From an uncultured virus (IMG/VR IMGVR_UViG_3300019776_000649) (taxonomy: Duplodnaviria > Heunggongvirae > Uroviricota > Caudoviricetes): a stretch of 20,000 bases of DNA. The stretch lies in IMG/VR virus record IMGVR_UViG_3300019776_000649; one strand, written 5' to 3'. Below are positions 1,296 through 19,767 of this stretch, piece after piece. A model generated the notes under the pieces. The model saw nothing but the letters and a program-made list of their open reading frames with translations, did no database searches and was not told where the DNA came from. How positions within the stretch are numbered: position 1 is the first letter of the stretch; each line of letters opens with the position of its first letter. The translations under genes were made by a program, and so were the position numbers.

Positions 1296-1346
1296 ATTTG
1301 ATTTAGTCGCTCGGTTGCCCAAGGCACACCAGCGATTAAACCAAAT
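1296..1346. repeat. 51-bp palindromic element, copy 1
   Basis: ATTTGATTTAGTCG + 23 nt (ctcggttGCCCAAGGCacaccag) + CGATTAAACCAAAT. Confidence 0.9.
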
Positions 1347-1459
1347 GGTGCCTCGCAGTCACACAATCCGAAGGCACCTCGCAATTCCAGCGAACATGAG
1401 TTGTGTGAAATCCAATCTCAGGGACCGCTATCCCTGATCCCCACAGGAGCAATTGAACT

Positions 1460-3209: not shown

Positions 3210-3270
3210 AGAGGAGCCAGCACAAGGCGAAGCTACCAAGCTACGCAAGGAGCTGGCTCCTCTTTCTTTC
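3210..3270 (+). terminator. terminator-like hairpin with a large loop that encloses an AGCT-ACCA-AGCT element
   Basis: 12-bp inverted repeat AGAGGAGCCAGC (3210-3221) / GCTGGCTCCTCT (3252-3263), followed by TTCTTTC. Confidence 0.5.
3227..3246. repeat. ACCA-loop mini-palindrome (GCGAAGCT-ACCA-AGCTACGC)
   Basis: 19/20 identical to the reverse complement of 5060-5079. Confidence 0.8.
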
Positions 3271-5059: not shown

Positions 5060-5079
5060 GCGTAGCTTGGTAGCTACGC
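5060..5079. repeat. ACCA/TGGT-loop mini-palindrome (GCGTAGCT-TGGT-AGCTACGC)
   Basis: Perfect 8-bp inverted repeat directly upstream of the RBS of the gene at 5094. Confidence 0.8.
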
Positions 5080-5810: not shown

Positions 5811-5828
5811 ACAACCCTTTGGAAGCTG

Positions 5829-5867
5829 GCCCGGAAGATAGCAATGTCTTCCGGGCTCAATTCTTTT
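5829..5867 (+). terminator. GNRA-capped hairpin, probable terminator
   Basis: GCCCGGAAGATA-GCAA-TGTCTTCCGGGC followed by tcaattctttt. Confidence 0.6.
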
Positions 5868-5878
5868 ATGGAGAACTT

Positions 5879-7414
5879 ATGAATAAGCCTATCATCGGGG
5901 GTCGAATACCCCTTGGACGCGAAGCAACCATGCTTCGTGAAGGGCTCCCCACAGGGGAGATTCCACGTCAAGACGATTTCGCCCCGAAGAGGGGTACTTC
6001 TAAAATCGAATACGAAGAACCCGGAACGGGTGGCATTGACGAGTTCGATGTCTCAGCCTTTATCATGGAGGCTCCTCCATCTGCCCTAGATCGCATTATC
6101 GAACAGCTTCTGGTTCGTCGCCGTGGCAACGTAATGGATGTTGTCGGTCTAGTCGAAACAGCCGCCTACCGCCTTGGCATGGATCGGTCTTCTGGTGCCT
6201 TCAACCGATTCACCGAGGGCCTTCGTGCCGCAAACACCCTGGATAGAGACATCGACCTTCCTATGATCTGGTTTGGCCTCTACGAGCAAGCCTTGCACTT
6301 GTTCAATGGGCAGAGTGGTGCTGGTAAGTCCTCCGTCATGTACAACATCGCCATGCACCTGGCCATTGGCAAAGAGCTGTGGGGCATTCCTGTCAGCGCC
6401 CCTCAAAATATCGTTTACCTTGATCCCGAAAACCGCGTTGTTCGGCCACACAAGCTGTCCCGAATCGCGGAGAAGATGGGAATCGAGGTTCCAGACAATC
6501 TTCACTTCCATGACGGCGAAGGGATTGACCTTTCCGATCCCCGCACCCTGAAAGAGCTTGGCGACCTGCTCATGGACAAAGGCGCTACAGGGCTAATCAT
6601 CGACCCGTGGGTGAACCTCTTTGGGACGCTCAACGAAAACGACAACGCGGAGGCCGCTCGCCAGGGCAAGGCTCTGCTCGACCTTATCAAGAGGACTGGT
6701 TGCTGGGTAGTAGCTGTCCACCACACAGGCAAGTCGTCTGAGGGCGGCGGTCGAGGCGCTTCTGCTAGAGAAGGAGTCTCCCGCGTCATCATGGACTTGG
6801 TTCTTCCGAGTATGGCCCGTGAAGAGGACGACGACTACAATCCTGAGCGTAAGCAACTGCGCGAAGACTTCGTTCGCCTGATGGTTCGCAAAGACGGTAT
6901 CGGGGGGATGAAGTCCAGCGTGTATCTACAGATGCTCGGAGAGAAGGCGCAGGACTGTTTTCGCCGTGTCAGCTTCCGCGAATGGATGAATAACCTACGG
7001 GAGGCCGCAGTCTCTAAGGGGATGTCCAAAGAGGAGCAGGCTGGCGTGATGATCCTAGAGTTCCTGTCGGATAAGTACCGGGTTGTCCCCCGCAAAGAGA
7101 TCATCGACTACTTCAAATCGCTTGGGCCTAAAGCTCCCGGAGTCACAGCAGTCAATGATGCTCTTGTTACTCTTACCAGTGGAGAAACCCCGTCCTTGAA
7201 GGAACAGTACATTGGAGGCAAGGGAGGTGCAAAAGGCTATTATCTTGGAACCCTAGACCCAGCTACCTTTGTTAACGAAGTGACCGGAACCTCTGCTGCC
7301 GATGATGTAAATGAGATGGTAGAGCTTTCAGCAGGGAAAAAGCAAGTAGACGAGGAATACGTTTTACCGACAGACGGTGTGATTACTCCACCGCCAGGGG
7401 CTTTTGAAGAGTAA
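5879..7414 (+). CDS. RecA-fold helicase (AAA_25 / RSF1010 RepA-like)
   Basis: Walker A GQSGAGKS, VYLDPEN, Walker B LIIDP, VVAVHHTGK and GRGASA. GGAG precedes ATG 5879. Confidence 0.85.
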   Translation: MNKPIIGGRIPLGREATMLREGLPTGEIPRQDDFAPKRGTSKIEYEEPGTGGIDEFDVSAFIMEAPPSALDRIIEQLLVRRRGNVMDVVGLVETAAYRLGMDRSSGAFNRFTEGLRAANTLDRDIDLPMIWFGLYEQALHLFNGQSGAGKSSVMYNIAMHLAIGKELWGIPVSAPQNIVYLDPENRVVRPHKLSRIAEKMGIEVPDNLHFHDGEGIDLSDPRTLKELGDLLMDKGATGLIIDPWVNLFGTLNENDNAEAARQGKALLDLIKRTGCWVVAVHHTGKSSEGGGRGASAREGVSRVIMDLVLPSMAREEDDDYNPERKQLREDFVRLMVRKDGIGGMKSSVYLQMLGEKAQDCFRRVSFREWMNNLREAAVSKGMSKEEQAGVMILEFLSDKYRVVPRKEIIDYFKSLGPKAPGVTAVNDALVTLTSGETPSLKEQYIGGKGGAKGYYLGTLDPATFVNEVTGTSAADDVNEMVELSAGKKQVDEEYVLPTDGVITPPPGAFEE

Positions 7415-9011: not shown

Positions 9012-9629
9012 ATGGCAATGCTATCGAAGCAATCCTACGATCTGATTTACGGCAAGGGAGTCTTCCTATCCCGAGCCCGTAGTGATCCTGACAATCCAGA
9101 TGACTCCGACCCCTTCGGAGGTGGCGGCAAAAGAACCTATTCGGAAACCGAGAGACAACAGTCTTCTCGGTTTTCTGCTTTCTCACACCTTCACGATGTA
9201 CTTGGTCCAGCCTTCATTGAAGTGCTTGGGAAGAACCCGAGAGAGTACGGCTTTGGTGACGGTGTTTACGACCGTGATCGAATCGGGAAGATAATCGCCA
9301 AGGCCGAGTCTTCCACCCACCCATTTGCGATCCATATCGAACCCCTATTTGAGCGACTTTTCGAGGAGGTCATGGCCATCAACAGCCTGTACCCAAAGCC
9401 TGCAAAAGTCATCTCGTCCATCGAGGAGCCTGACGATGATCCTCCGTGGAATCCAGAACCTGACGCTGCATACAAGTCAGGCGATGTCGTCGAGCATGAA
9501 GGCTTCAGATGGGTCGCTCGCAAGCCCCTGGCTGGGCTACCTCCCTCTGAAAAAGATTCAAGGTGGAGCTTTCTCTCCATCTTCTATCCAGATGGATACA
9601 GACAACCACGGTTTGAGGTGAGTTCATGA
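9012..9629 (+). CDS. hypothetical protein with a C-terminal CBM5/12 (ChtBD3)-like module
   Basis: W-x6-YKSGDVVEHEGFRWVA…PP…W matches the CBM5/12 pattern. Confidence 0.65.
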   Translation: MAMLSKQSYDLIYGKGVFLSRARSDPDNPDDSDPFGGGGKRTYSETERQQSSRFSAFSHLHDVLGPAFIEVLGKNPREYGFGDGVYDRDRIGKIIAKAESSTHPFAIHIEPLFERLFEEVMAINSLYPKPAKVISSIEEPDDDPPWNPEPDAAYKSGDVVEHEGFRWVARKPLAGLPPSEKDSRWSFLSIFYPDGYRQPRFEVSS

Positions 9630-10321
9630 CGGAGCGTTTTTGCAATCACTGCCCATATCGACAGGAGCGCACGAAAGGCGGTGTTTGCCGCGAGTTCTGC
9701 GTCCTACAGGAGGAATCAATGGTTCAAAAACAGGGTGAGAGCCCAGAAGACATCGAGGATGTTGATTACCAGGAAGCTGTCCGTATCCTGCATCAACCCG
9801 GAGGCATGACCCAGCAAGACGTTGAGTATGTCCTGCGCCGAATCCTCACTCACAAGGCTGCGTTGCACTCTATCAACGAGACCTGGGAGGCAGCTAAAAG
9901 ACGGGAGCAATCCCAGATCGACAAGATGATCCGGTTCTATGGACCATCCATCCGCACCTGGCTTGAGGCAACTCTTGCCGTCCAAAACTGGGGCAAGAAA
10001 AAGCCAACGAAGAGCGTCATCACTCCCTACGGCGTCCTTAAGCACACCTCCTCCGGTGGTCGGCACAAGATCGAGGACGAGGCCCAGGTGATCGAATGGA
10101 TTTCCTCCGAATCAGAGTTAGACCCCTCTCTTAAAGACCTTCTGAATGTCACCACGAAGGTCAATGCACGGGAGCTGATCTCTCGCATTGGAAAGACGGG
10201 CGAGATCATCCCCGGTGTGGGCTTTATCGACAAGTTTGACAAGCCCAGCATCGCTCTTGTTGGTTTCGGCACGATCTCCCTAGAGGGTTCCTCGGGAGAG
10301 GAGAGTGAGCCTGATGAGTAA
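9626..10321 (+). CDS. Mu Gam-like host-nuclease inhibitor / DNA end-binding protein
   Basis: Coiled-coil followed by KSVITPYGVL … DEAQVIEWI … KVNAREL … TGEIIPGV. Has an extra N-terminal Cys cluster. Confidence 0.7.
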   Translation: MTERFCNHCPYRQERTKGGVCREFCVLQEESMVQKQGESPEDIEDVDYQEAVRILHQPGGMTQQDVEYVLRRILTHKAALHSINETWEAAKRREQSQIDKMIRFYGPSIRTWLEATLAVQNWGKKKPTKSVITPYGVLKHTSSGGRHKIEDEAQVIEWISSESELDPSLKDLLNVTTKVNARELISRIGKTGEIIPGVGFIDKFDKPSIALVGFGTISLEGSSGEESEPDE

Positions 10322-10499
10322 ATTGAGCCTGATGAGTGAGCCACAAGGCAAGAAAGAGGTGATCGAGCAGGTTGTTGCGGCGGCGTTGATCTCCGTCGTC
10401 ACCGGCTTAATCACCTGGGGGATTGATGCCCTCAAAGAGGCGATTAAAAAAAAGAAAGCGAGCAAAGATGAGCCAATACATCCCACTTCTGAGACGTAG
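10314..10499 (+). CDS. small single-pass membrane protein
   Basis: Hydrophobic stretch VVAAALISVVTGLITWGI followed by a basic tail. GAGGAG upstream. Alternative start at 10332. Confidence 0.6.
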   Translation: MSKLSLMSEPQGKKEVIEQVVAAALISVVTGLITWGIDALKEAIKKKKASKDEPIHPTSET

Positions 10500-10526
10500 A
10501 GCCTCAAAACTCCAAAGCGGAGGCGC

Positions 10527-10546
10527 GGAGCTACCAAGCTCCAGCC
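10527..10546. repeat. ACCA-loop mini-palindrome GGAGCT-ACCA-AGCTCC-AGCC
   Basis: An identical 20-mer occurs at 11235-11254. Confidence 0.85.
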
Positions 10547-10560
10547 GGATAGCAAGACCA

Positions 10561-11166
10561 ATGATTGCCATCTCGGGTTACTCCCGCCAGGGTAAGGACG
10601 AGGCAGGCAAAGCACTGATAGCCAGAGGCTACAAGCGAGTCGCTTTCGGCGACATCATTCGGCAAAAACTTCGTGAGTTCACCCTTCCAGATGCCGTGAA
10701 GCTGATCGCCTGGATGCGAAATCAAGGACAACCAGAGTCCGAGAGGAAGCGAGTATGGCAGTCGTTTGAAGACATGGCCACCTTCAAGATCGACCTCTTC
10801 ACAGAAAATGACGATCAGAAGAAAATGCTCCGCGCACTGATGGAGTGGTACGGCATGTACGACTACGACGCCATCATGGATGAGCTATTTCGCACGCTGC
10901 CACTCCCCGCTGTGAACACAAGGCTCATGAGAGTCCGTGAAGCCCAGGCTTGGGTTGATAGCGGAGGATTTGTGATCGAGGTCATTAGGCTAAACGCTGT
11001 CCCACTTACCGACTTTGAGCGCGATACCCAGCAGGAGTTGCGCGACTCGGGACTGCTATCAGTGACGATCATCAACGGCGGCACTATCGAGGACCTACAC
11101 CGGGCGATTTTGGATTTTGCCGAGAGTTCTCCCACCGGATACCAACCGGAGCTGGCCATGTTCTAG
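10561..11166 (+). CDS. deoxynucleoside monophosphate kinase
   Basis: MIAISGYSRQGKDE P-loop, AFGDIIR, and IINGGTIEDL. Start set at 10561 because family members usually begin just before the P-loop; 10468 is an alternative. Confidence 0.8.
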   Translation: MIAISGYSRQGKDEAGKALIARGYKRVAFGDIIRQKLREFTLPDAVKLIAWMRNQGQPESERKRVWQSFEDMATFKIDLFTENDDQKKMLRALMEWYGMYDYDAIMDELFRTLPLPAVNTRLMRVREAQAWVDSGGFVIEVIRLNAVPLTDFERDTQQELRDSGLLSVTIINGGTIEDLHRAILDFAESSPTGYQPELAMF

Positions 11167-11168
11167 CC

Positions 11169-11219
11169 ATTTGATTTAGTCGGATACGAGCAAAAGGCAA
11201 CCAAGCGATTAAATCAAAT
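11169..11219. repeat. 51-bp palindromic element, copy 3
   Basis: ATTTGATTTAGTCG + 23 nt (gatacgaGCAAAAGGCaaccaag) + CGATTAAATCAAAT, flanked by CC/GG. Confidence 0.9.
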
Positions 11220-11234
11220 GGTTGCCTTTCTGGT

Positions 11235-11254
11235 GGAGCTACCAAGCTCCAGCC
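11235..11254. repeat. ACCA-loop mini-palindrome GGAGCT-ACCA-AGCTCC-AGCC
   Basis: Identical to 10527-10546. Lies between palindrome copy 3 and the RBS of the gene at 11271. Confidence 0.85.
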
Positions 11255-11270
11255 TGCATGAAAGGACCCT

Positions 11271-12605
11271 ATGAATACGATACTTCGCATCTACACGGAC
11301 GGCGGTCTCGCACAAGACAACCCCTCGGTTCTTGGTGGCGCTTACTGCGTCATCGCGGTCAAGGAAACGATAGACGAGAACGGCTTAGTGATCGGCTCCC
11401 AGCAGATCAGTATCCAGAGCGACATCCTCCTCCCCGATGAACTAGATGCCAGCAAGAAGGAGCCAGCCAAGGGTAGTGTCTCCAACAACAACACGGAGCT
11501 TCTCGGTGTGATCGTGGCTTTGGAGACCGTTCCCAAGCTGGTGGAGTGGGTGGCAGGTGAACTCATGGAGACCCTAACCATCGTCACGGACTCGGAGTTG
11601 GCAATGAAGTGGGCTCAGGGACTCTACGGAACGGACTCGGTTCCAAACGTCCTTCTTGAGCGTCTGAAGGACGCCTATGTTCACATCGGCAGTCTGGGCT
11701 TCGACACTCAGTTCTTCCCAAAATACGAGCTGATCGCCGGTCATCCAAACCAACAAGAGCTGAAAAAGCAGTTCAAGATGAAGAAGACCAGGAAGTACCG
11801 CGTCTCGGAGGTCAATGTCCGTTGCGACGAGGTTTGCGGAAAGATTTGTGATGCTGTATCTGCGGTCTATGTCAGCGGCCAGGACGTGACCAGGGAGACA
11901 GTCAAACAGTACATGGATGAGCAAGATACAAAGGAGGCTGAGGTAGAGAACCAGAGCCGCCCACCGATGCCAGAAATCACCGGATATGGCCTCAAGGCAG
12001 GAAACACCTACTTGTGGCTGAACGACAGTTGGGCTGAGGTCTTTAGCGGTGTCCCGCCTACGGCATCCGAGTTCCAAGCCTTCGTTGGGCTCATGCAACG
12101 ATCCGAGTTGGGAGAGATCGGACTTCGAGCTTCTTATGCTCTTGGTCTTTCGGGTGAGTCTGCCGAAGTTCTTGAAGCTCTCATCAAGAACAATTGGGAT
12201 GGTTCGCCAGACGAGATCGGAGACGTGCTGCACTACGTCTTCGGGTCGGCTCTTCTAGTCGGCATTGACGGCGATTACCTAATGGCAAGCGTCGTGGCTC
12301 GGATCATGGCTATCCAGAAAGGTGAGATACCTCCGATGCCACATACCCTTGCTGACATGGCCTACACGCTTCCCTACTTGTCTGCCAAGTACGGCGAGCT
12401 AATCAAGAAGAAGGACTACCACAGCAAGGAAATCGAGCAGGACAAGCTGGTTGGCGCACTGCACAATGTCCTGTTCAACCTCTGCGGCATCTGCAACGCC
12501 TCAAACATGACCATCCAGGCGGCGATGACTCGCAACATGGCGAAACTCCGCGAGCGCCACCCGAGCGGGTCCTTCACCCCGACGTATCACGACGCGGCAG
12601 TTTAG
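11271..12605 (+). CDS. RNase HI domain fused to a tandem MazG-like (all-alpha NTP pyrophosphatase) region
   Basis: RNase HI motifs IYTDGG, NNNTE, IVTDS, AGH and NxxCD. MazG motifs LGLSGESAEV…DEIGDVLHY and NMAKLRERHP. Confidence 0.8.
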   Translation: MNTILRIYTDGGLAQDNPSVLGGAYCVIAVKETIDENGLVIGSQQISIQSDILLPDELDASKKEPAKGSVSNNNTELLGVIVALETVPKLVEWVAGELMETLTIVTDSELAMKWAQGLYGTDSVPNVLLERLKDAYVHIGSLGFDTQFFPKYELIAGHPNQQELKKQFKMKKTRKYRVSEVNVRCDEVCGKICDAVSAVYVSGQDVTRETVKQYMDEQDTKEAEVENQSRPPMPEITGYGLKAGNTYLWLNDSWAEVFSGVPPTASEFQAFVGLMQRSELGEIGLRASYALGLSGESAEVLEALIKNNWDGSPDEIGDVLHYVFGSALLVGIDGDYLMASVVARIMAIQKGEIPPMPHTLADMAYTLPYLSAKYGELIKKKDYHSKEIEQDKLVGALHNVLFNLCGICNASNMTIQAAMTRNMAKLRERHPSGSFTPTYHDAAV

Positions 12606-12622
12606 AGCGATAGGAGATCATT

Positions 12623-13141
12623 TTGAACGATACATCCACTTACAATAGCCCCGAGATCGACAAGATCGCGGTGGCGCTGGTGAAAGTCCAGAGCGAAGTT
12701 GGAGGGGTCTCCAAATCGGGAAAGAACCCTCACCTCAGAAATTCCTATGCGACTATCGGTGACGTGCTCGACACGGTGATTCCTGTAGCGCAAGCACATG
12801 GGCTGGTCATCATCCAGCGCCCCATGCCGTCTGGAAACCCAAACCTGATCTTGCTCCAGACACTCGTTGTCCATGAGAGCGGCCAGTTTCTCTCAAGCCT
12901 GATCGAGATGCCTCTTGGCAAGCAAGACCCGCAAGGGTACGGCTCTGGAATGACTTACGCTCGCCGCTACGGTCTCATGTCTTTCTTTGGCCTCAAAGCG
13001 GAAGATGATGACGGAAATGCGGCCAGTGGAGTGACCGGACCACCGGCTCAGGCATCAAAACCACCCACTCAGGCAACAAGGCCAGCGGCGATCCCGACTG
13101 GTGGTGTTAGGCCACAAACGCGGCAGCTACCAACTCGGTAA
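12623..13141 (+). CDS. erf: ERF-family single-strand annealing protein
   Basis: Signature GSGMTYARRYGL…EDDDG. TTG start with RBS AGGAGA. Confidence 0.9.
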   Translation: MNDTSTYNSPEIDKIAVALVKVQSEVGGVSKSGKNPHLRNSYATIGDVLDTVIPVAQAHGLVIIQRPMPSGNPNLILLQTLVVHESGQFLSSLIEMPLGKQDPQGYGSGMTYARRYGLMSFFGLKAEDDDGNAASGVTGPPAQASKPPTQATRPAAIPTGGVRPQTRQLPTR

Positions 13142-13202: not shown

Positions 13203-14177
13203 ATGAAAATCAAACAAAAGCGGGGCAGGCCGATCCCCTCTGCTTACAGCGTGGAAATCTTGGAGCATACCATCGCCCCATCTGGCTCCGAGGCGATCAC
13301 CTACTTGCTGACTTATCCGCTGATCGTCCACGCCGAGCTAATGACACACCGTCAGTTCAGCCGTAACGCCGCATCCAACCGGGCCATTCCCATTGAGCGC
13401 ACGATGGAGTCTGTTATTCGCTCTCCGTTCGTCCCAGATCGCCTACCGAAGTCAGGTAAGGGGATGCAACCCGGAGGCTACTATGAAGGCTTCCAGAACA
13501 CCCTGCGGCTGTTCATTTACCGCGAGTCGCGCTGGTTTGCTCTTGCCGTTTCGTGGCTCCTGCTTCGTCTTGGCGTTCACAAGGAGATAGCCAATCGGGT
13601 ACTGGTTCCCTGGCTTTGGATCACGGTCGTTGTGACCACGATGAACGATGAGAAGGGGCTACAGAACTTCTTTAGGCAGCGTTGTCATTCTGACGCCCAG
13701 CGCCAGATTCGCATCCTGGCCGACATGATGAGAGCCAAGTACATCCAATCCACACCAAGGCGTCTGGAGCAAGTTGAGTGGCACCTGCCCTTCATCGCAA
13801 AAGAAGACTACCGACAGGTCTACCAGGAAGCAGTTCATGAGTGGGAGAGGCAGACAGGAGAGGACGAGATGGCCTTCCCGCTTGGCTTCCAGGACTGGGA
13901 GCTGGTCGGCAAGCTGGTCAAAATCTCTGCCGCTCGGTGCGCTAGAACCTCGTTTGTCCCCTTCGACAGCATGGGCTCCAAGAGTCATGCAGAAGACCTG
14001 AAGCTACACGATCAGCTTGTCGCCAAGTACCATATGTCCCCACTGGAGCATCAGCTCTGCGGAGTCACCTCTGACTGGAAAAGCAACAACGTTCACGGAT
14101 ACCGCCAATACCGTGAGCTAGTCGAGAATGGATACGTCGCCGAGGTGTCCGTCTATCAAAGCGCAGTCATGAACTAA
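13203..14177 (+). CDS. thyX: flavin-dependent thymidylate synthase (phage type)
   Basis: ELMTHRQFSRNAASNRAIP (phage variant of the RHRxxSxxxxSxR motif), HKEIANR, SAARCARTS and HMSPLEH. Confidence 0.88.
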   Translation: MKIKQKRGRPIPSAYSVEILEHTIAPSGSEAITYLLTYPLIVHAELMTHRQFSRNAASNRAIPIERTMESVIRSPFVPDRLPKSGKGMQPGGYYEGFQNTLRLFIYRESRWFALAVSWLLLRLGVHKEIANRVLVPWLWITVVVTTMNDEKGLQNFFRQRCHSDAQRQIRILADMMRAKYIQSTPRRLEQVEWHLPFIAKEDYRQVYQEAVHEWERQTGEDEMAFPLGFQDWELVGKLVKISAARCARTSFVPFDSMGSKSHAEDLKLHDQLVAKYHMSPLEHQLCGVTSDWKSNNVHGYRQYRELVENGYVAEVSVYQSAVMN

Positions 14178-14185
14178 GGAGAAAT

Positions 14186-16366
14186 ATGAGAGCAACTTTT
14201 TCACTAACCAAGTCGTTTGTCGATGGATACCGCCAGAAGCCGAGCCCATTTGGACTCAACGGCTTTGGAGAGCTGGTTTACCGCCGCACCTACAGCCGCA
14301 TCAAGCAAGACGGCACCAACGAGGACTGGACAGATACTGTCGCCCGTGTTGTGACCGGCGTCTACCGGATGCAGGAGCGCCACATCAAGGGGCTTCATAA
14401 GCGTTGGGACAGTGCCAAGGCACAGCGATCCGCGCAGACCATGTTCGACCTGATGTGGAACATGAAGTTCCTCCCGCCGGGTCGTGGACTTTGGGCGATG
14501 GGTAGCGAGATCACAGAGGACCGAGAGATGTTCGCGGCCCTCAACAACTGTGCCTTTGTCAGTACCGACGATCTTGCAGTCGCACTTGAGAAACCGTTTG
14601 CCTTCCTCATGGACATGTCCATGCTTGGGGTTGGGGTCGGTTTCGATGCCAAGGGCAAAGGCTCTATCAGTATCCTGAATCCAGACAAGACCTTCAACGT
14701 TTCGTCTTCTGTGGGGAAGATGCCGATGATCGACTTCATCCTGGAAAAGTTCGATCTGATTCGTGAGCATATCTACCCTGGCTCTCTGAGCTATGTCTCA
14801 GTACCTGACTCCAGCAAACACTACCGGGAGTGCTACACAGTCGATTACGATGACGACCCTGCGTATGGTGGATTCTACTACCAGATTCCTGATACCCGCG
14901 AGGGGTGGGTTTTGGCCCTGACTTTCATGCTCTCTTCCTACTTCCGCGACCTGCCGCGAGTCAAGTTCCTCTACGATCACATCCGTCCTGCTGGTCTTCC
15001 CATAAAGGGCTTTGGTGGCGTCTCGTCTGGTCCTGAGCCACTGAAGATGATGCTTGAGTCTGTCAGCGGCTATCTGGATCAGCGCATCGGGAAGAAGATC
15101 ACGGTCGAGGACATTGTGACCATCCAGAACATGATCGGCGTCTGCGTCGTGGCTGGCAATGTCCGTCGCACCGCTGAGATTGCTTTCGGTGAGGCAGACG
15201 ATGAGCAGTTCATGGACCTCAAGAACTACCGTTGGAACCCTGCCACCATGCAGATGGCGGGGCCAGCGGCCCATCGAGCGGCGTTTGGGTGGACCAGTAA
15301 CAACTCGATCTTCGCCGAGATCGGGATGGACTACACCAAGGCGGCGGGACGCACTGCGGTTAATGGTGAACCTGGGTACGCTTGGCTGGAGAACATGCAG
15401 AACTACAGCCGCATGATCGACGCTCCCGATTTCAAAGACTACCGAGTCAAGGGAGGCAACCCGTGTCTTGAGCAGTCGCTCGAAAGCTACGAGCTGTGCA
15501 ACCTGGTGGAGACTTACCCGGCTCGCCACGAAACGATGGAGGAGTGGCACAAGACTCTCAAGTACGCCTACCTCTACGCCAAGACGGTTACTCTCGGAAT
15601 GACCCACTGGGAAGACACGAACGAGGTCATGAGCCGCAATCGGCGCATCGGCACCTCGATCTCCGGTTTTGCTCAGGCCCGTGTCAAGTTCGGTATCCAC
15701 AAGCTCAGGACTGGCCTTGACGAGGGCTTTAAGACGATCCAGAAGTACGACCGAATCTACTCCGAATGGCTGTCAGTACCCCGGAGCATCAAGACGACCT
15801 CTGTGAAGCCTTCGGGCACTGTCAGCTTGCTTGCTGGCGCAACGCCTGGGATGCACTTCCCCCACTCGCGGTTCTGCATCCGTCGTATGAGGTTGTCTAT
15901 CCACTCCAATCTCATTCAGCCATTGAAAGACGCTGGCTACGACATTGAACCCTGCGTCGGCCAGGAGGACAGCACAGTAGTCGTGTCTGTCCCTATCGAC
16001 ATGGGCGAAGGTCTCCGTGGTACGGAGCAAGTCTCGATGTGGGAGCAGTTTGAAATCGCGGCATTCCTACAGGCTTACTGGACAGACAACCAAGTCTCTT
16101 GCACAGTCACGTTCGATCCCGTGTCTGAAGGGCCTCAGATCAAGTATGCCTTGGAGCTTTACGAGTCCCGGCTCAAGGGTATCTCGCTACTCCCGAGGCT
16201 TGACGCTGGTGCCTACCCTCAGATGCCTTATGAGGAGATCAGCGAGGCCGAGTATCACGCGAGGGTCGCTGAGCTAGGCAAGCCAGACTTCAGCGGGTCA
16301 GTTGAGCAAGCCGAGATGAATGACAAGTTCTGCGACAGCGAGAAGTGTGAACTTCCAGCCAAGTAG
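14186..16366 (+). CDS. nrdJ: class II (adenosylcobalamin-dependent) monomeric ribonucleoside-triphosphate reductase
   Basis: YRRTYSR, PPGRGLW, LNNC, VVAGNVRR, NPCLEQ…ELCNL, VKPSGT and C-terminal CDSEKC. Confidence 0.93.
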   Translation: MRATFSLTKSFVDGYRQKPSPFGLNGFGELVYRRTYSRIKQDGTNEDWTDTVARVVTGVYRMQERHIKGLHKRWDSAKAQRSAQTMFDLMWNMKFLPPGRGLWAMGSEITEDREMFAALNNCAFVSTDDLAVALEKPFAFLMDMSMLGVGVGFDAKGKGSISILNPDKTFNVSSSVGKMPMIDFILEKFDLIREHIYPGSLSYVSVPDSSKHYRECYTVDYDDDPAYGGFYYQIPDTREGWVLALTFMLSSYFRDLPRVKFLYDHIRPAGLPIKGFGGVSSGPEPLKMMLESVSGYLDQRIGKKITVEDIVTIQNMIGVCVVAGNVRRTAEIAFGEADDEQFMDLKNYRWNPATMQMAGPAAHRAAFGWTSNNSIFAEIGMDYTKAAGRTAVNGEPGYAWLENMQNYSRMIDAPDFKDYRVKGGNPCLEQSLESYELCNLVETYPARHETMEEWHKTLKYAYLYAKTVTLGMTHWEDTNEVMSRNRRIGTSISGFAQARVKFGIHKLRTGLDEGFKTIQKYDRIYSEWLSVPRSIKTTSVKPSGTVSLLAGATPGMHFPHSRFCIRRMRLSIHSNLIQPLKDAGYDIEPCVGQEDSTVVVSVPIDMGEGLRGTEQVSMWEQFEIAAFLQAYWTDNQVSCTVTFDPVSEGPQIKYALELYESRLKGISLLPRLDAGAYPQMPYEEISEAEYHARVAELGKPDFSGSVEQAEMNDKFCDSEKCELPAK

Positions 16367-16382
16367 AGAAACGACAACATAG

Positions 16383-16419
16383 ACGAAAGAGCCCCCCGAT
16401 TGGGGGGCTCTTTCGTTTT
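16383..16419 (+). terminator. intrinsic terminator
   Basis: 15-bp stem ACGAAAGAGCCCCCC-GATT-GGGGGGCTCTTTCGT followed by TTT. Confidence 0.85.
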
Positions 16420-16450
16420 GCGAAGGATCGGTCCTTCGTGGGAGATCACT

Positions 16451-16990
16451 ATGCCAGCTCATAGAAAATACCCAGAAGTCAAGCGGATTGAAGGCAGTGT
16501 CATCGTCTTTGAGGCAAAGAAAGACACGGGGGATATGGTCGAGGTTAAGGTAGATAGAGGCGACTGGGAAAGGGTTCGTCAGTACAACTGGAGGGTCAGC
16601 AGAAAGGGATATGTCCACGGTCAAGACTACATGAATGGACAAAGCCGAAAAGTTCTCCTGCACCGCTACTTGATGAATTTTCCTAACTCCCAGATTGACC
16701 ATGCCGATAGAGACAGAGCCAACTGTACGAAGGCAAATCTGCGAGTCTGCACAAGCTCACAGAACAACGGCAACAGGTCTTACGCTGGTTCTTCTAAATC
16801 GGGATTCATGGGCGTCCATTTTAGAAAAGACACGGGCAAGTACAGGGTCAAGATCGTTCATCAAGGCAAAAAGCACTTCGTTGGAAACTTCGATGATCCT
16901 TATGAAGCCGCCCTTGCCTATGACCGGAAGAAGGAAGAGCTTTTTGGGGAGTTTGCCTACGTCAATTTTCCAGAGAGGCGTATGGCATGA
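16451..16990 (+). CDS. HNH homing endonuclease with a C-terminal AP2 domain
   Basis: LHRYLM…IDHADRDRANCTKANLR and AP2 motif GVHFRKDTGKY…EAALAYD…NF. GGAG precedes ATG 16451. Confidence 0.9.
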   Translation: MPAHRKYPEVKRIEGSVIVFEAKKDTGDMVEVKVDRGDWERVRQYNWRVSRKGYVHGQDYMNGQSRKVLLHRYLMNFPNSQIDHADRDRANCTKANLRVCTSSQNNGNRSYAGSSKSGFMGVHFRKDTGKYRVKIVHQGKKHFVGNFDDPYEAALAYDRKKEELFGEFAYVNFPERRMA

Positions 16991-17448
16991 AGCAGATCAC
17001 CGCAGACGGCAGGAGTCCTCGAAAAGAGGGGCGAGTCTTCGTGGAACCCTACGGAATGGTCAAGGCCGATAACGAAGGCTCTGAGCTAGAGATCGAGTTA
17101 CTGACGGTACTCCACCAGGAGCTACCCGGCATCACCTACGGGATGCTACGCGAGTTTCGATTCAATCCTCCGGCTATCCACAAGTTTGACTTTGCTTGGC
17201 CGGACATCAAGATCGCTATCGAGATCGAGGGTGGACTTTACTCTGGTGGAAGACATACCAGAGGCGCTGGTTACGAGGCCGATCTTATCAAATACAACGA
17301 GGCAGTCCTTCGTGGCTGGATCGTTCTGAGATTCGGCACTAACCATGTTCGCCGGGAGAGGGAGTCGTCGCTGATGATGATTCGGCGAGCCTTCAATATC
17401 AGAAAATCCGGTGATCGAATTGGCGATTTAATTGATTTAGTCGTTTGA
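16987..17448 (+). CDS. PD-(D/E)xK nuclease (DUF559/Vsr-like)
   Basis: EFRF…FDFAWPDIKIAIEIEGG…RH…DLIKYN…GWIVLRF. Confidence 0.85.
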   Translation: MKQITADGRSPRKEGRVFVEPYGMVKADNEGSELEIELLTVLHQELPGITYGMLREFRFNPPAIHKFDFAWPDIKIAIEIEGGLYSGGRHTRGAGYEADLIKYNEAVLRGWIVLRFGTNHVRRERESSLMMIRRAFNIRKSGDRIGDLIDLVV

Positions 17449-17480
17449 TCGCCTAAGGCAACGCACCGATTAAATCAAAT
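17430..17480. repeat. 51-bp palindromic element, copy 4
   Basis: AATTGATTTAGTCG + 23 nt (tttgatcGCCTAAGGCaacgcac) + CGATTAAATCAAAT. Overlaps the last codons of the nuclease gene. Confidence 0.9.
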
Positions 17481-17522
17481 GGAGCTACTAGACCGTCATC
17501 TAGTAGCTCCATTCACTTTCTT
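17478..17522 (+). terminator. 15-bp hairpin containing GGAGCTAC, terminator-like
   Basis: AATGGAGCTACTAGA-CCGTCA-TCTAGTAGCTCCATT followed by cactttctt. Confidence 0.55.
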
Positions 17523-19269: not shown

Positions 19270-19767
19270 ATGACGGATTACGTCTTGGTCCATGTGAGTG
19301 GATCGGATAAAAAGGCCCTTGTCTCTCCTGGAGACAGGGGCCTTATCATTGGTTATGCTTGGCATCTTGACCTTAGGCCAAACTCCTTTGGTCAACTTGT
19401 CCCACGCCGCATCAGGGCCAACGGGCACAAAGGCGATCCTCGCAGGATGGTCTCTCTGCACCAACTAATACTTGGCTTTCCTGGAGGAGTCATTGACCAC
19501 ATCAACGGCAACATCTTCGACAACAGGCGAGAGAACTTGAGACTGGCTGACAAACGCGGCAATCGCGCAAATGCCAAACCCAACGGAGATCGGCCTTTCA
19601 AGGGGATCACAGGCGGCGGAGGTAAATGGGAGGCGCAGATCGTCTCGGGTGGCAAGAAATACTATCTTGGCCGCTTCACCACTCCAGAAGATGCTGCCCG
19701 AGCTTACGACAAGGCGGCACTGGATATGTTTGGAGACTTCGCTCGTTTGAACTTCCCGAGTGCTTGA
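19270..19767 (+). CDS. HNH homing endonuclease with a C-terminal AP2 domain
   Basis: LHQLIL…IDHINGNIFDNRRENLR and AP2 motif KWEAQI…LGRFTTPEDAARAYD…LNFP. Confidence 0.9.
   Translation: MTDYVLVHVSGSDKKALVSPGDRGLIIGYAWHLDLRPNSFGQLVPRRIRANGHKGDPRRMVSLHQLILGFPGGVIDHINGNIFDNRRENLRLADKRGNRANAKPNGDRPFKGITGGGGKWEAQIVSGGKKYYLGRFTTPEDAARAYDKAALDMFGDFARLNFPSA

Follow-up and report, generated by a model that had tools for sequence, protein, structure and literature searches.

A phage-encoded RNase HI-family domain joined to a two-unit MazG-like domain: a putative bifunctional replication enzyme

Background

RNase H domains joined in one chain to an enzyme of phosphate or nucleotide metabolism have been described in mycobacteria, where Rv2228c/MSMEG_4305 is a fusion of RNase HI with a CobC phosphatase (PMC7466739) and RelZ is a fusion of RNase HII with a (p)ppGpp synthetase (PMC7591505). 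Here we describe a phage protein of analogous layout, which is encoded by an open reading frame (ORF) at positions 11271..12605 (+ strand; ATG start, 444 amino acids (aa) and a stop codon) of a 20,000-nucleotide (nt) stretch of DNA from an uncultured virus of the Caudoviricetes (IMG/VR record IMGVR_UViG_3300019776_000649), the whole of which was analyzed and is referred to below as the window. This protein, hereafter the fusion protein, consists of an N-terminal RNase HI-family domain (N domain) and a C-terminal domain made of two MazG-like units (C domain). The two enzymes are ordinary ones for phages, but their combination, which is genuine, is rare; the novelty lies in the fusion and not in the parts. 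The mycobacterial proteins share with it the RNase H head but differ in the partner domains and in being cellular rather than phage proteins; in addition, the RNase H of RelZ is of type 2.

Each of the two domains has well-characterized counterparts. The bacterial type-1 RNases H (e.g., E. coli RNase HI and LC11-RNase H1, 3U3G) have the same fold and the same D-E-D-(H)-D catalytic set as the N domain, which, unlike these enzymes, belongs to a distinct subfamily with a conserved insertion. For the C domain, a pertinent comparison is with the all-alpha dimeric dUTPases (5MYD, Dut of an S. aureus phage; 1W2Y from C. jejuni; 2YAY from L. major), in which a four-helix-bundle site is likewise formed by one chain, although none of these enzymes carries an RNase H domain. 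The helix bundle in dUTPase from C. jejuni is contained in one protomer, the metal ligands of the dimeric dUTPases (E, E, E and D) come from the first half of the chain, oligomerization occurs via the face opposite the active site, and these enzymes are thought to have been derived from MazG-like ancestors by duplication (PMC2954211). The stand-alone MazG-like NTP pyrophosphatases (NTP-PPases) of phages (~160-230 aa, phrog_229) have the same two-unit fold and the same division of acidic and basic residues between the units as the C domain, e.g., A0A1B4XWM6 from Tenacibaculum phage pT24, with template modelling (TM) scores of 0.68/0.64 to the C domain model; unlike the fusion protein, they are not joined to any other enzyme. 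E. coli MazG (3CRA/3CRC) also contains tandem MazG domains in one chain but, according to a profile alignment, both of these bear acidic motifs, whereas the second unit of the C domain has lost them. In the Z-genome phage S-2L, a MazG-like enzyme destroys a canonical dNTP (PMC8342488). With respect to the domain combination, the Pol polyprotein of non-primate lentiviruses has the order reverse transcriptase/RNase H - dUTPase - integrase in one translation product (PMC4531489). The dUTPase of Pol, however, belongs to an unrelated class of all-beta trimers and is set free by proteolysis; its likeness to the fusion protein is an analogy only.

Architecture and relatives of the fusion protein

An HMMER search of 1.84 billion representative proteins (E<=0.001) yields 169 matches, the best 150 of which, those listed, comprise the fusion protein's own cluster (P0001) and 149 proteins that cover one half only. 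Among these, 74 proteins, mostly 150-260 aa long, cover aa ~5-200 (the N family). The other 75 cover the C half: 60 are proteins of ~165-335 aa that span both MazG-like units (aa ~265-438; the C family), and the remaining 15 either are short MazG proteins or have their best stretch on unit 2 alone. None of the longer proteins among the matches listed bears the domain of the opposite half, and the scores of the 19 matches outside the best 150 are too low for a two-domain match. An alignment of all 149 matches mixed together (A1) was dropped because C-type matches fell against the N half; conservation is reported below for alignment A3, which combines aa 1-235 with the 74 N-type matches (75 sequences), and alignment A2, which combines aa 236-444 with the 60 two-unit matches (61 sequences; the 15 unit-2-only matches are left out). 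In the six frames of the window, the hidden Markov models of the N family and the C family each match the fusion ORF alone. The features of the encoded protein are as follows.

11271..11870, + strand: RNase HI-family domain, aa 1-200 (alignment, profile, AlphaFold2 (AF2) model, Foldseek)
aa 8-12: RNase H motif YTDGG, with D10
aa 72-78: RNase H motif NNNTELL, with E76
aa 105-109: RNase H motif VTDSE, with D107
aa 156-160: RNase H motif AGHPN, with H158
aa 184-188: RNase H motif RCDEV, with D186
11871..12056, + strand: linker of ~62 aa, aa 201-262 (N-type matches stop at aa ~190-210, C-type matches start at aa 264-290)
12057..12326, + strand: MazG-like unit 1, aa 263-352, with acids E296, E299, (E302), E315 and D318, and Y322
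aa 295-302: unit 1 motif GESAEVLE
aa 314-322: unit 1 motif DEIGDVLHY
12327..12602, + strand: MazG-like unit 2, aa 353-444, acids lost and basic set kept
aa 372-381: unit 2 motif AKYGELIKKK
aa 395-402: unit 2 motif GALHNVLF
aa 422-431: unit 2 motif NMAKLRERHP

The N-terminal RNase HI domain

A preliminary description of the window had assigned a full RNase HI D-E-D-(H)-D set to the N-terminal ~200 aa, and this assignment holds: the motifs are located as claimed, are conserved, and are embedded in an RNase HI fold. In alignment A3, D107 is invariant, and conservation reaches at least 90% for D10, G11, G12, N17, P18, S19, N73, E76, A79, S108, G157, H158, P159, V178, N182, D186 and C189. A search of solved structures with the N-family profile identifies RNase HI 3h08 (E=1.9e-9) and E. 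coli RNase HI (~3e-9), and in the profile alignment the catalytic candidates are matched to the motifs of the E. coli enzyme. The fusion protein alone shows a weak match to phrog_531 ("RNase H"), which is matched by 58 of the 75 N-family sequences; 51 of the 75 match Pfam PF00075 at E<=0.01, with the best value of 1.1e-9. The AF2 model of the N domain, with a predicted local distance difference test score (pLDDT) of 93.7 and a predicted TM score (pTM) of 0.89, adopts the RNase H fold, a mixed sheet of five strands with helices on its flanks. A Foldseek search of PDB started with this model gives 189 matches at E<=0.001, with RNase H1/HI on top; a probability of 1.00 is obtained for LC11-RNase H1 (3u3g, E=4e-8) as well as for E. 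coli RNase HI and the N-domain of Rv2228c (3hst). These results support the classification of aa 1-200 as a member of the type-1 RNase H family with a complete catalytic set.

The N family is distinguished by a conserved insertion of ~25 aa between the GHP motif and the last Asp (aa ~160-183), with the pattern GHPxxxxLxxGFKxKxxxxYPVSxxNVxCD, which is modelled as a beta-hairpin at aa 168-177. This subfamily is found mostly in metagenomes and metagenome-assembled genomes (MAGs), and a search of 50,697 phage records with one of its members (P0003) gives no match. In one MAG contig (locus L005, 2524-5476), a stand-alone N-family gene is located between the genes for a primase and a DnaB-like helicase, with an adjoining integrase gene; this locus is probably a prophage or an integrative element. 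In another MAG contig (locus L006, 3300-6120), such a gene is found 1.2 kb upstream of the gene for a ThyA-type thymidylate synthase. The contexts of the stand-alone genes are consistent with a role in primer removal.

The C-terminal two-unit MazG-like domain

The C-terminal part had been described in advance as two MazG-like repeats, the first with the acidic metal motif and the second without the acids but with the basic NxxKLxxR helix; all three observations are borne out. The profiles of unit 1 and unit 2 are matched by hhalign with the probability of 97.2% (E=4e-11, 62 columns), so that the two units are, as judged from their sequences, homologous products of an internal duplication. Pfam MazG (PF03819) matches aa 288-346 with 35.1 bits in the whole protein and 37.9 bits in the C fragment, compared to the cut-off of 22, and phrog_229 ("MazG-like pyrophosphatase") matches two stretches of the fusion protein, the best one at aa 376-437. 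Among the 61 C-family sequences, 58 match Pfam MazG and all match phrog_229. A search of PDB sequences with the C-family profile identifies E. coli MazG as the best match (E=7e-8), whereas the NCBIfam MazG models NF007113 / TIGR00444 are far below their cut-offs (19.7-22.5 bits compared to 208, and 13.6 compared to 148.3). Membership of the C-terminal part in the MazG superfamily is supported, but membership in the E. coli-type two-domain MazG family is not.

The two units differ in the residues that are conserved. In alignment A2, the unit 1 acids E296, E299, E315 and D318, which form the ExxE...ExxD motif, are each present in 61 of the 61 sequences. The unit 2 equivalents of these four acids (L370, K373, A396 and N399) are variable across the C family; in contrast, the basic residues K425 and R429 of unit 2 are each conserved in 61/61, N422 in 60/61 and the acidic residue at position 376 (E in the fusion protein, D or E in the family) in 59/61. 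The lysine pair of unit 2 is kept as well (K379 in 57/61, K380 in 56/61), and the unit 1 equivalents of the unit 2 basic residues are likewise variable. The division of labor between an acidic and a basic unit thus holds in 61/61 family members.

A tblastn search of the 50,697 GenBank phage records with another relative (P0012) retrieves 30 records, none of which covers at least 80% of the query, so that cultured phages match through a short one-unit part only. One further relative (P0011, 181 aa) consists of two near-identical MazG units with acidic motifs in both, which suggests a very recent duplication and a repeated origin of two-unit MazG proteins. The duplication in the C domain itself looks separate from, and younger than, the one that produced the dimeric dUTPases, because both of its units are still recognizable as MazG.

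Predicted fold and self-pairing of the C domain

The AF2 model of the C domain came out all-alpha (pLDDT 88.9, pTM 0.86), as had been anticipated for an NTP-PPase. The comparison of this model with 48,161 chains using VIA-align places dimeric dUTPases in the top three rows, with the whole domain covered (Z scores here are subject to the caution on helical models that is given below):

5myd_A: Z 11.5, root mean square deviation (rmsd) 3.4, 148 of 160 aligned
1w2y_A: Z 10.4, rmsd 3.5, 156 aligned
2yay_A: Z 9.0, rmsd 4.4, 145 aligned

The next rows are one-unit MazG/HisE chains (1vmg, 1yvw and 2q5z; Z 6.5-6.8, rmsd 2.1-3.1) that cover unit 1 only. E. coli MazG superimposes poorly over its length (TM 0.27/0.24, rmsd 17.9) and appears, together with C. 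jejuni dUTPase (TM ~0.4), among the weak Foldseek rows. Numerous BFVD entries from phages, 160-230 aa long and named MazG-like, NTP-PPase or dUTPase, have TM scores of 0.55-0.68 to the C model. The C domain is built like a dimeric dUTPase, its best whole-domain structural match, but, unlike the dimeric dUTPases, is not a sequence member of the family PF08761.

Modelling of the C domain with a second copy of itself gives an ipSAE of 0.76, compared to 0.00 for the best control, with contact agreement of at least 95% among three runs and a partner pLDDT of at least 76. In calibration, this mark was reached by 20 of 30 solved pairs and by 1 of 23 solved single chains, which is a rough guide here given that a custom alignment was used. 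The predicted interface involves fragment residues 45-67 and 130-148 (aa ~280-302 and ~365-383) that interleave with the catalytic positions and exclude them. A homodimer of the C domain is thus predicted, although resemblance to MazG or dUTPase oligomers of solved structure may account for this result. Since the C domain is predicted to self-pair, the particle would probably have a pair of composite sites and a pair of RNase H heads. The earlier view of this domain, a single-chain asymmetric dimer that has one active site, is retained in part: the two-unit architecture stands, although it is a known and common design, being found in the dimeric dUTPases and in many stand-alone phage NTP-PPases, and the number of sites in the assembled protein would probably be two.

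Integrity of the fusion gene

Whether the ORF could result from an assembly or sequencing error that merged two adjacent genes was assessed using assembled contigs from sequencing runs rather than raw reads. In run X1, a contig of 74,865 nt, the longest that bears the fusion gene, spans positions 11000-12900 at a depth of 25.5 with 0 differences, although the window itself may derive from this contig. Seven short pieces, all identical to the window, come from run X4, a different sample within that study. In run X5, from a separate freshwater study, a piece covers 11937-12087 with 3 differences, and in run X6, from a third study, of sediment, a piece covers 11724-12001 with 11 differences. No gaps are present in the pieces from any run, and the X6 and X5 pieces jointly span the region between the RNase H GHP motif and the first C-domain helix, linker included. 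The stretches of the gene that the X4-X6 contigs leave uncovered carry no weight either way, and no RNA run is among the sequencing runs listed for the gene. Eight in-gene differences are listed, of which four are synonymous and four are nonsynonymous, the latter all in linker codons 214-227. In addition, a 444-aa protein from the European Nucleotide Archive differs from the fusion protein by a single residue.

Given that portions of the linker are traversed by indel-free contigs from two additional studies, a frameshift artefact is disfavored, and the fusion is not an obvious sequencing error, a possibility that the preliminary description had left for checking. What could be cited in favor of an artefact is the linker, for which no homologue was found and which contains a Shine-Dalgarno-like AAGGAGG at 11931-11937, along with the fact that the runs are seen as contigs only. 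Against the gapless, diverged pieces from two other studies, the identical pieces from a second sample, the depth-25.5 contig (possibly the source of the window) and the same-length archived protein with one substitution, such an error appears very improbable. In the AF2 model, aa 208-229 of the linker form a helix and aa 236-255 are of low confidence.

An internal start that would yield a separate C domain product was considered and rejected: the AAGGAGG, a strong Shine-Dalgarno-like sequence, is 29 nt ahead of the next in-frame ATG. The in-frame codon located five nt past it, GTA, is no start codon. This element could be a relic of the former ribosome-binding site of the downstream gene, or a chance occurrence. 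The antisense ORF at 11574..12233 (- strand, 219 aa), which is contained within the fusion gene, has no Pfam or PHROG match and is treated as spurious; five of the eight natural differences are synonymous in its frame compared to four in the sense frame, numbers that are too small to mean anything.

Rarity of the fusion

The preliminary description knew of no RNase H-MazG fusion, and neither the sequence searches nor searches of the full-text literature (outside subscription journals) yielded one for these families; specifically, no phage RNase HI-MazG or RNase HI-dUTPase-like fusion was found to be described in that literature. In the matched passages of PMC7824862, RNase H and pyrophosphatase enzymes are treated separately. 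A search with the N-family profile among proteins of 62-583 aa identifies 38 proteins, of which only P0001 contains MazG, while two distant proteins in this profile search carry a formyltransferase domain; among proteins of 584-2000 aa, no fused protein was found, which is weak evidence. A tblastn search of the GenBank phage records with the whole fusion protein gives no match. IMG/VR viral contigs and JGI metagenome contigs, searched with the protein and N-family alignments, contain no confirmed fused relative, and in the ESM Atlas the structure matches are to RNase H only, with no usable feature match and no fused relative. A search for related phages based on Erf, which is encoded next to the fusion protein, gives two distant loci without either domain.

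Genomic context

All substantial ORFs of the window are on the + strand and make up a phage replication and nucleotide module. Scans with Pfam and PHROGs identify the following genes around the fusion gene.

5819-7414, + strand: AAA_25 helicase/primase-like gene
9626-10321, + strand: Mu Gam-like gene
10423-11166, + strand: dNMP (deoxynucleoside monophosphate) kinase-like gene
12623-13141, + strand: Erf gene
13203-14177, + strand: ThyX-like gene, 324 aa (partial Pfam Thy1 match, PHROG thymidylate synthase)
14186-16366, + strand: class II ribonucleotide reductase (RNR) gene
16400-16990, + strand: homing-endonuclease-like gene 1 (HNH_3 + AP2), directly after the RNR gene
19270-19767, + strand: homing-endonuclease-like gene 2 (HNH_3 + AP2), after a terminase-small-subunit-like gene

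The ThyX-like protein shows a strong match to the PHROG thymidylate synthase (6e-52) and a partial match to Pfam Thy1 (E=7e-13, profile positions 59-190 of 191). It is a divergent ThyX whose gene neighbors are dNMP kinase-like and class II RNR genes, and a non-standard product is worth considering. The two homing-endonuclease-like genes of the window are paralogues.

Two repeated elements are found upstream of the fusion gene. An intergenic repeat of ~54 nt occurs in three copies in the window (1298-1351, 11171-11224 and 17432-17485; 72-80% identity), one of them just upstream of the fusion gene, where an internal hairpin CCATTTGATTTAGTCG ... CGATTAAATCAAATGG with 16-nt arms and a 23-nt loop is located at 11167-11221. 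This repeat may be a phage regulatory or terminator-like element. Short parts of the intergenic region before the fusion gene recur at several other positions of the 74.9-kb X1 contig. The second element is a 20-nt palindromic motif, GGAGCTACCAAGCTCCAGCC, which is identical at 10527-10546 and 11235-11254; the copies are located 15-16 nt ahead of the ATGs at 10562 and 11271, the latter being the start of the fusion gene. Variants are located at 3229-3244 (+) and 5062-5077 (-), and with up to 3 mismatches the motif has 4 matches in the window compared to 0.2 expected. These observations suggest an expression signal common to the dNMP kinase-like gene and the fusion gene. They also suggest that the start of the dNMP kinase-like gene is the ATG at 10562 (MIAISGYSRQGKD...) and not the TTG at 10423. 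A scan for promoters and terminators around the fusion gene gives results at chance level.

Proposed function and alternative explanations

With a probability of roughly 0.65, we consider the fusion protein to be a bifunctional replication-hygiene enzyme that combines, in one chain, an RNase H with a (d)NTP pyrophosphatase of the dimeric-dUTPase-like kind. The domain identities, the conserved residues, the folds and the rarity of the fusion are shown by the analysis; what the two halves do, on which substrate, as a dimer or not, and whether tethering brings an advantage is inferred. Under this model, the gene would belong to a freshwater or sediment phage. The N-terminal module would be a type-1 RNase H that cuts the RNA strand of RNA:DNA hybrids, such as replication primers and R-loops, by two-metal catalysis involving D10, E76, D107 and D186 with H158. 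The C-terminal module would be an all-alpha NTP pyrophosphohydrolase in which the two units of one chain form a composite site, with unit 1 contributing the Mg-binding acids E296, E299, E315 and D318, and unit 2 contributing K379/K380, N422, K425 and R429 for binding of the triphosphate; the predicted reaction is (d)NTP -> (d)NMP + PPi (pyrophosphate). Given the dNMP kinase-like gene upstream and, downstream, the genes for RNR and a ThyX-like protein, this activity would most economically serve to clear dUTP, dCTP or non-canonical dNTPs, which would thus be excluded from the phage DNA, and to supply dUMP to ThyX. The modules would be tethered by the ~62-aa linker, and the C domains would pair via the back faces of two long helices. 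Such a protein most likely originated by joining of two stand-alone phage genes, resulting in co-expression and in co-localization at the replication site.

Several observations weigh against this assignment. The fusion protein alone scores 18.4-20.7 bits with Pfam PF00075, below the cut-off of 25.8, and does not match Pfam dUTPase_2 (PF08761) at E<=0.1, a family matched by one of 61 relatives (E=1.1e-3). A Foldseek search of PDB with the C model gives no match at E<=0.001, and VIA-align warns that the Z scores of helical models under ~13 may reflect a common arrangement, although the top rows are well separated from those below and come from the superfamily to which the sequence itself points. 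In genome contigs, there are four stand-alone N-family loci, and none of the four has a MazG-like neighbor (two of the contigs are only ~3 kb long), so that no conserved neighborhood links the two functions and the fusion looks like a one-off in its lineage. A fusion confined to a single lineage fits a neutral accident as well as it fits a selected coupling.

A more specific proposal is that the tether itself is functional, either by sanitizing the dNTP pool locally during primer removal and gap refilling, or by making the protein a two-pronged counter-defense enzyme against reverse-transcriptase- and nucleotide-based defenses; we regard this proposal as a speculative one. The alternative that comes closest to rivalling the bifunctional hygiene enzyme, while itself doubtful, is that the C domain acts in a base-replacement or dNTP-exclusion pathway, in which it would destroy one canonical dNTP, the ThyX-like protein and the dNMP kinase would make a modified nucleotide, and the RNase H would be a passenger. 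T4 dCTPase works together with a hydroxymethylase and a dNMP kinase in base replacement. The location of the fusion gene, with a dNMP kinase-like gene on one side and, on the other, a ThyX-like gene with only a partial Pfam Thy1 match, is compatible with this scheme, and so is the role of the MazG-like enzyme of phage S-2L (PMC8342488), represented by the 7ody row in VIA-align. However, Pfam and PHROG scans identify no modification enzyme in the 20-kb window, and the ordinary supply of dTTP would call for ThyX, a dNMP kinase and RNR just as well. We also know of no ThyX-type hydroxymethylase, which counts against this pathway.

The fusion could, less probably, be an anti-defense enzyme on both sides, with the RNase H directed at the hybrids made by defense reverse transcriptases (retrons and DRT) and the pyrophosphatase at chain terminators, signals or alarmones. 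Its rarity and lineage specificity resemble those of many counter-defense genes, but the surroundings of the gene are a replication and nucleotide module rather than an early or accessory region, a stand-alone N-family gene is found between primase and helicase genes, and, according to PMC6850273, a cyanophage MazG cannot hydrolyze magic-spot nucleotides. Less probable again is a protein with only one catalytic half, the other one serving for targeting or regulation, i.e., the RNase H as an anchor to hybrids or the NTP-PPase as a nucleotide sensor. The precedent is RelZ, for which the purified subdomains are reported to be non-functional and the domains interdependent (PMC7591505); the retention of all catalytic residues of both families in the fusion protein argues to the contrary.

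Implications

Domain fusions are one of the few clues to functional linkage that sequences offer, and the fusion protein appears to weld the removal of primers or R-loops to the hydrolysis of dNTPs; these two activities are also neighbors in retroviral Pol, with an unrelated dUTPase. If the tether matters, nucleotides would be sanitized locally at the sites of primer replacement. In either form, local sanitizing or counter-defense, a functional tether, if real, would represent an undescribed kind of coupled replication-hygiene or anti-defense enzyme, and it would be a convergent echo of the RNase H-dUTPase order in lentiviral Pol. The practical value of a compact bifunctional enzyme is modest, with the fusion confined to one lineage. 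Beyond the fusion itself, the analysis brings out two poorly described families of uncultured phages, an RNase HI subfamily with an insertion and a family of ~180-aa two-unit MazG proteins, the latter showing, in sequence that is still recognizable as MazG, how dimeric-dUTPase-like enzymes can arise.

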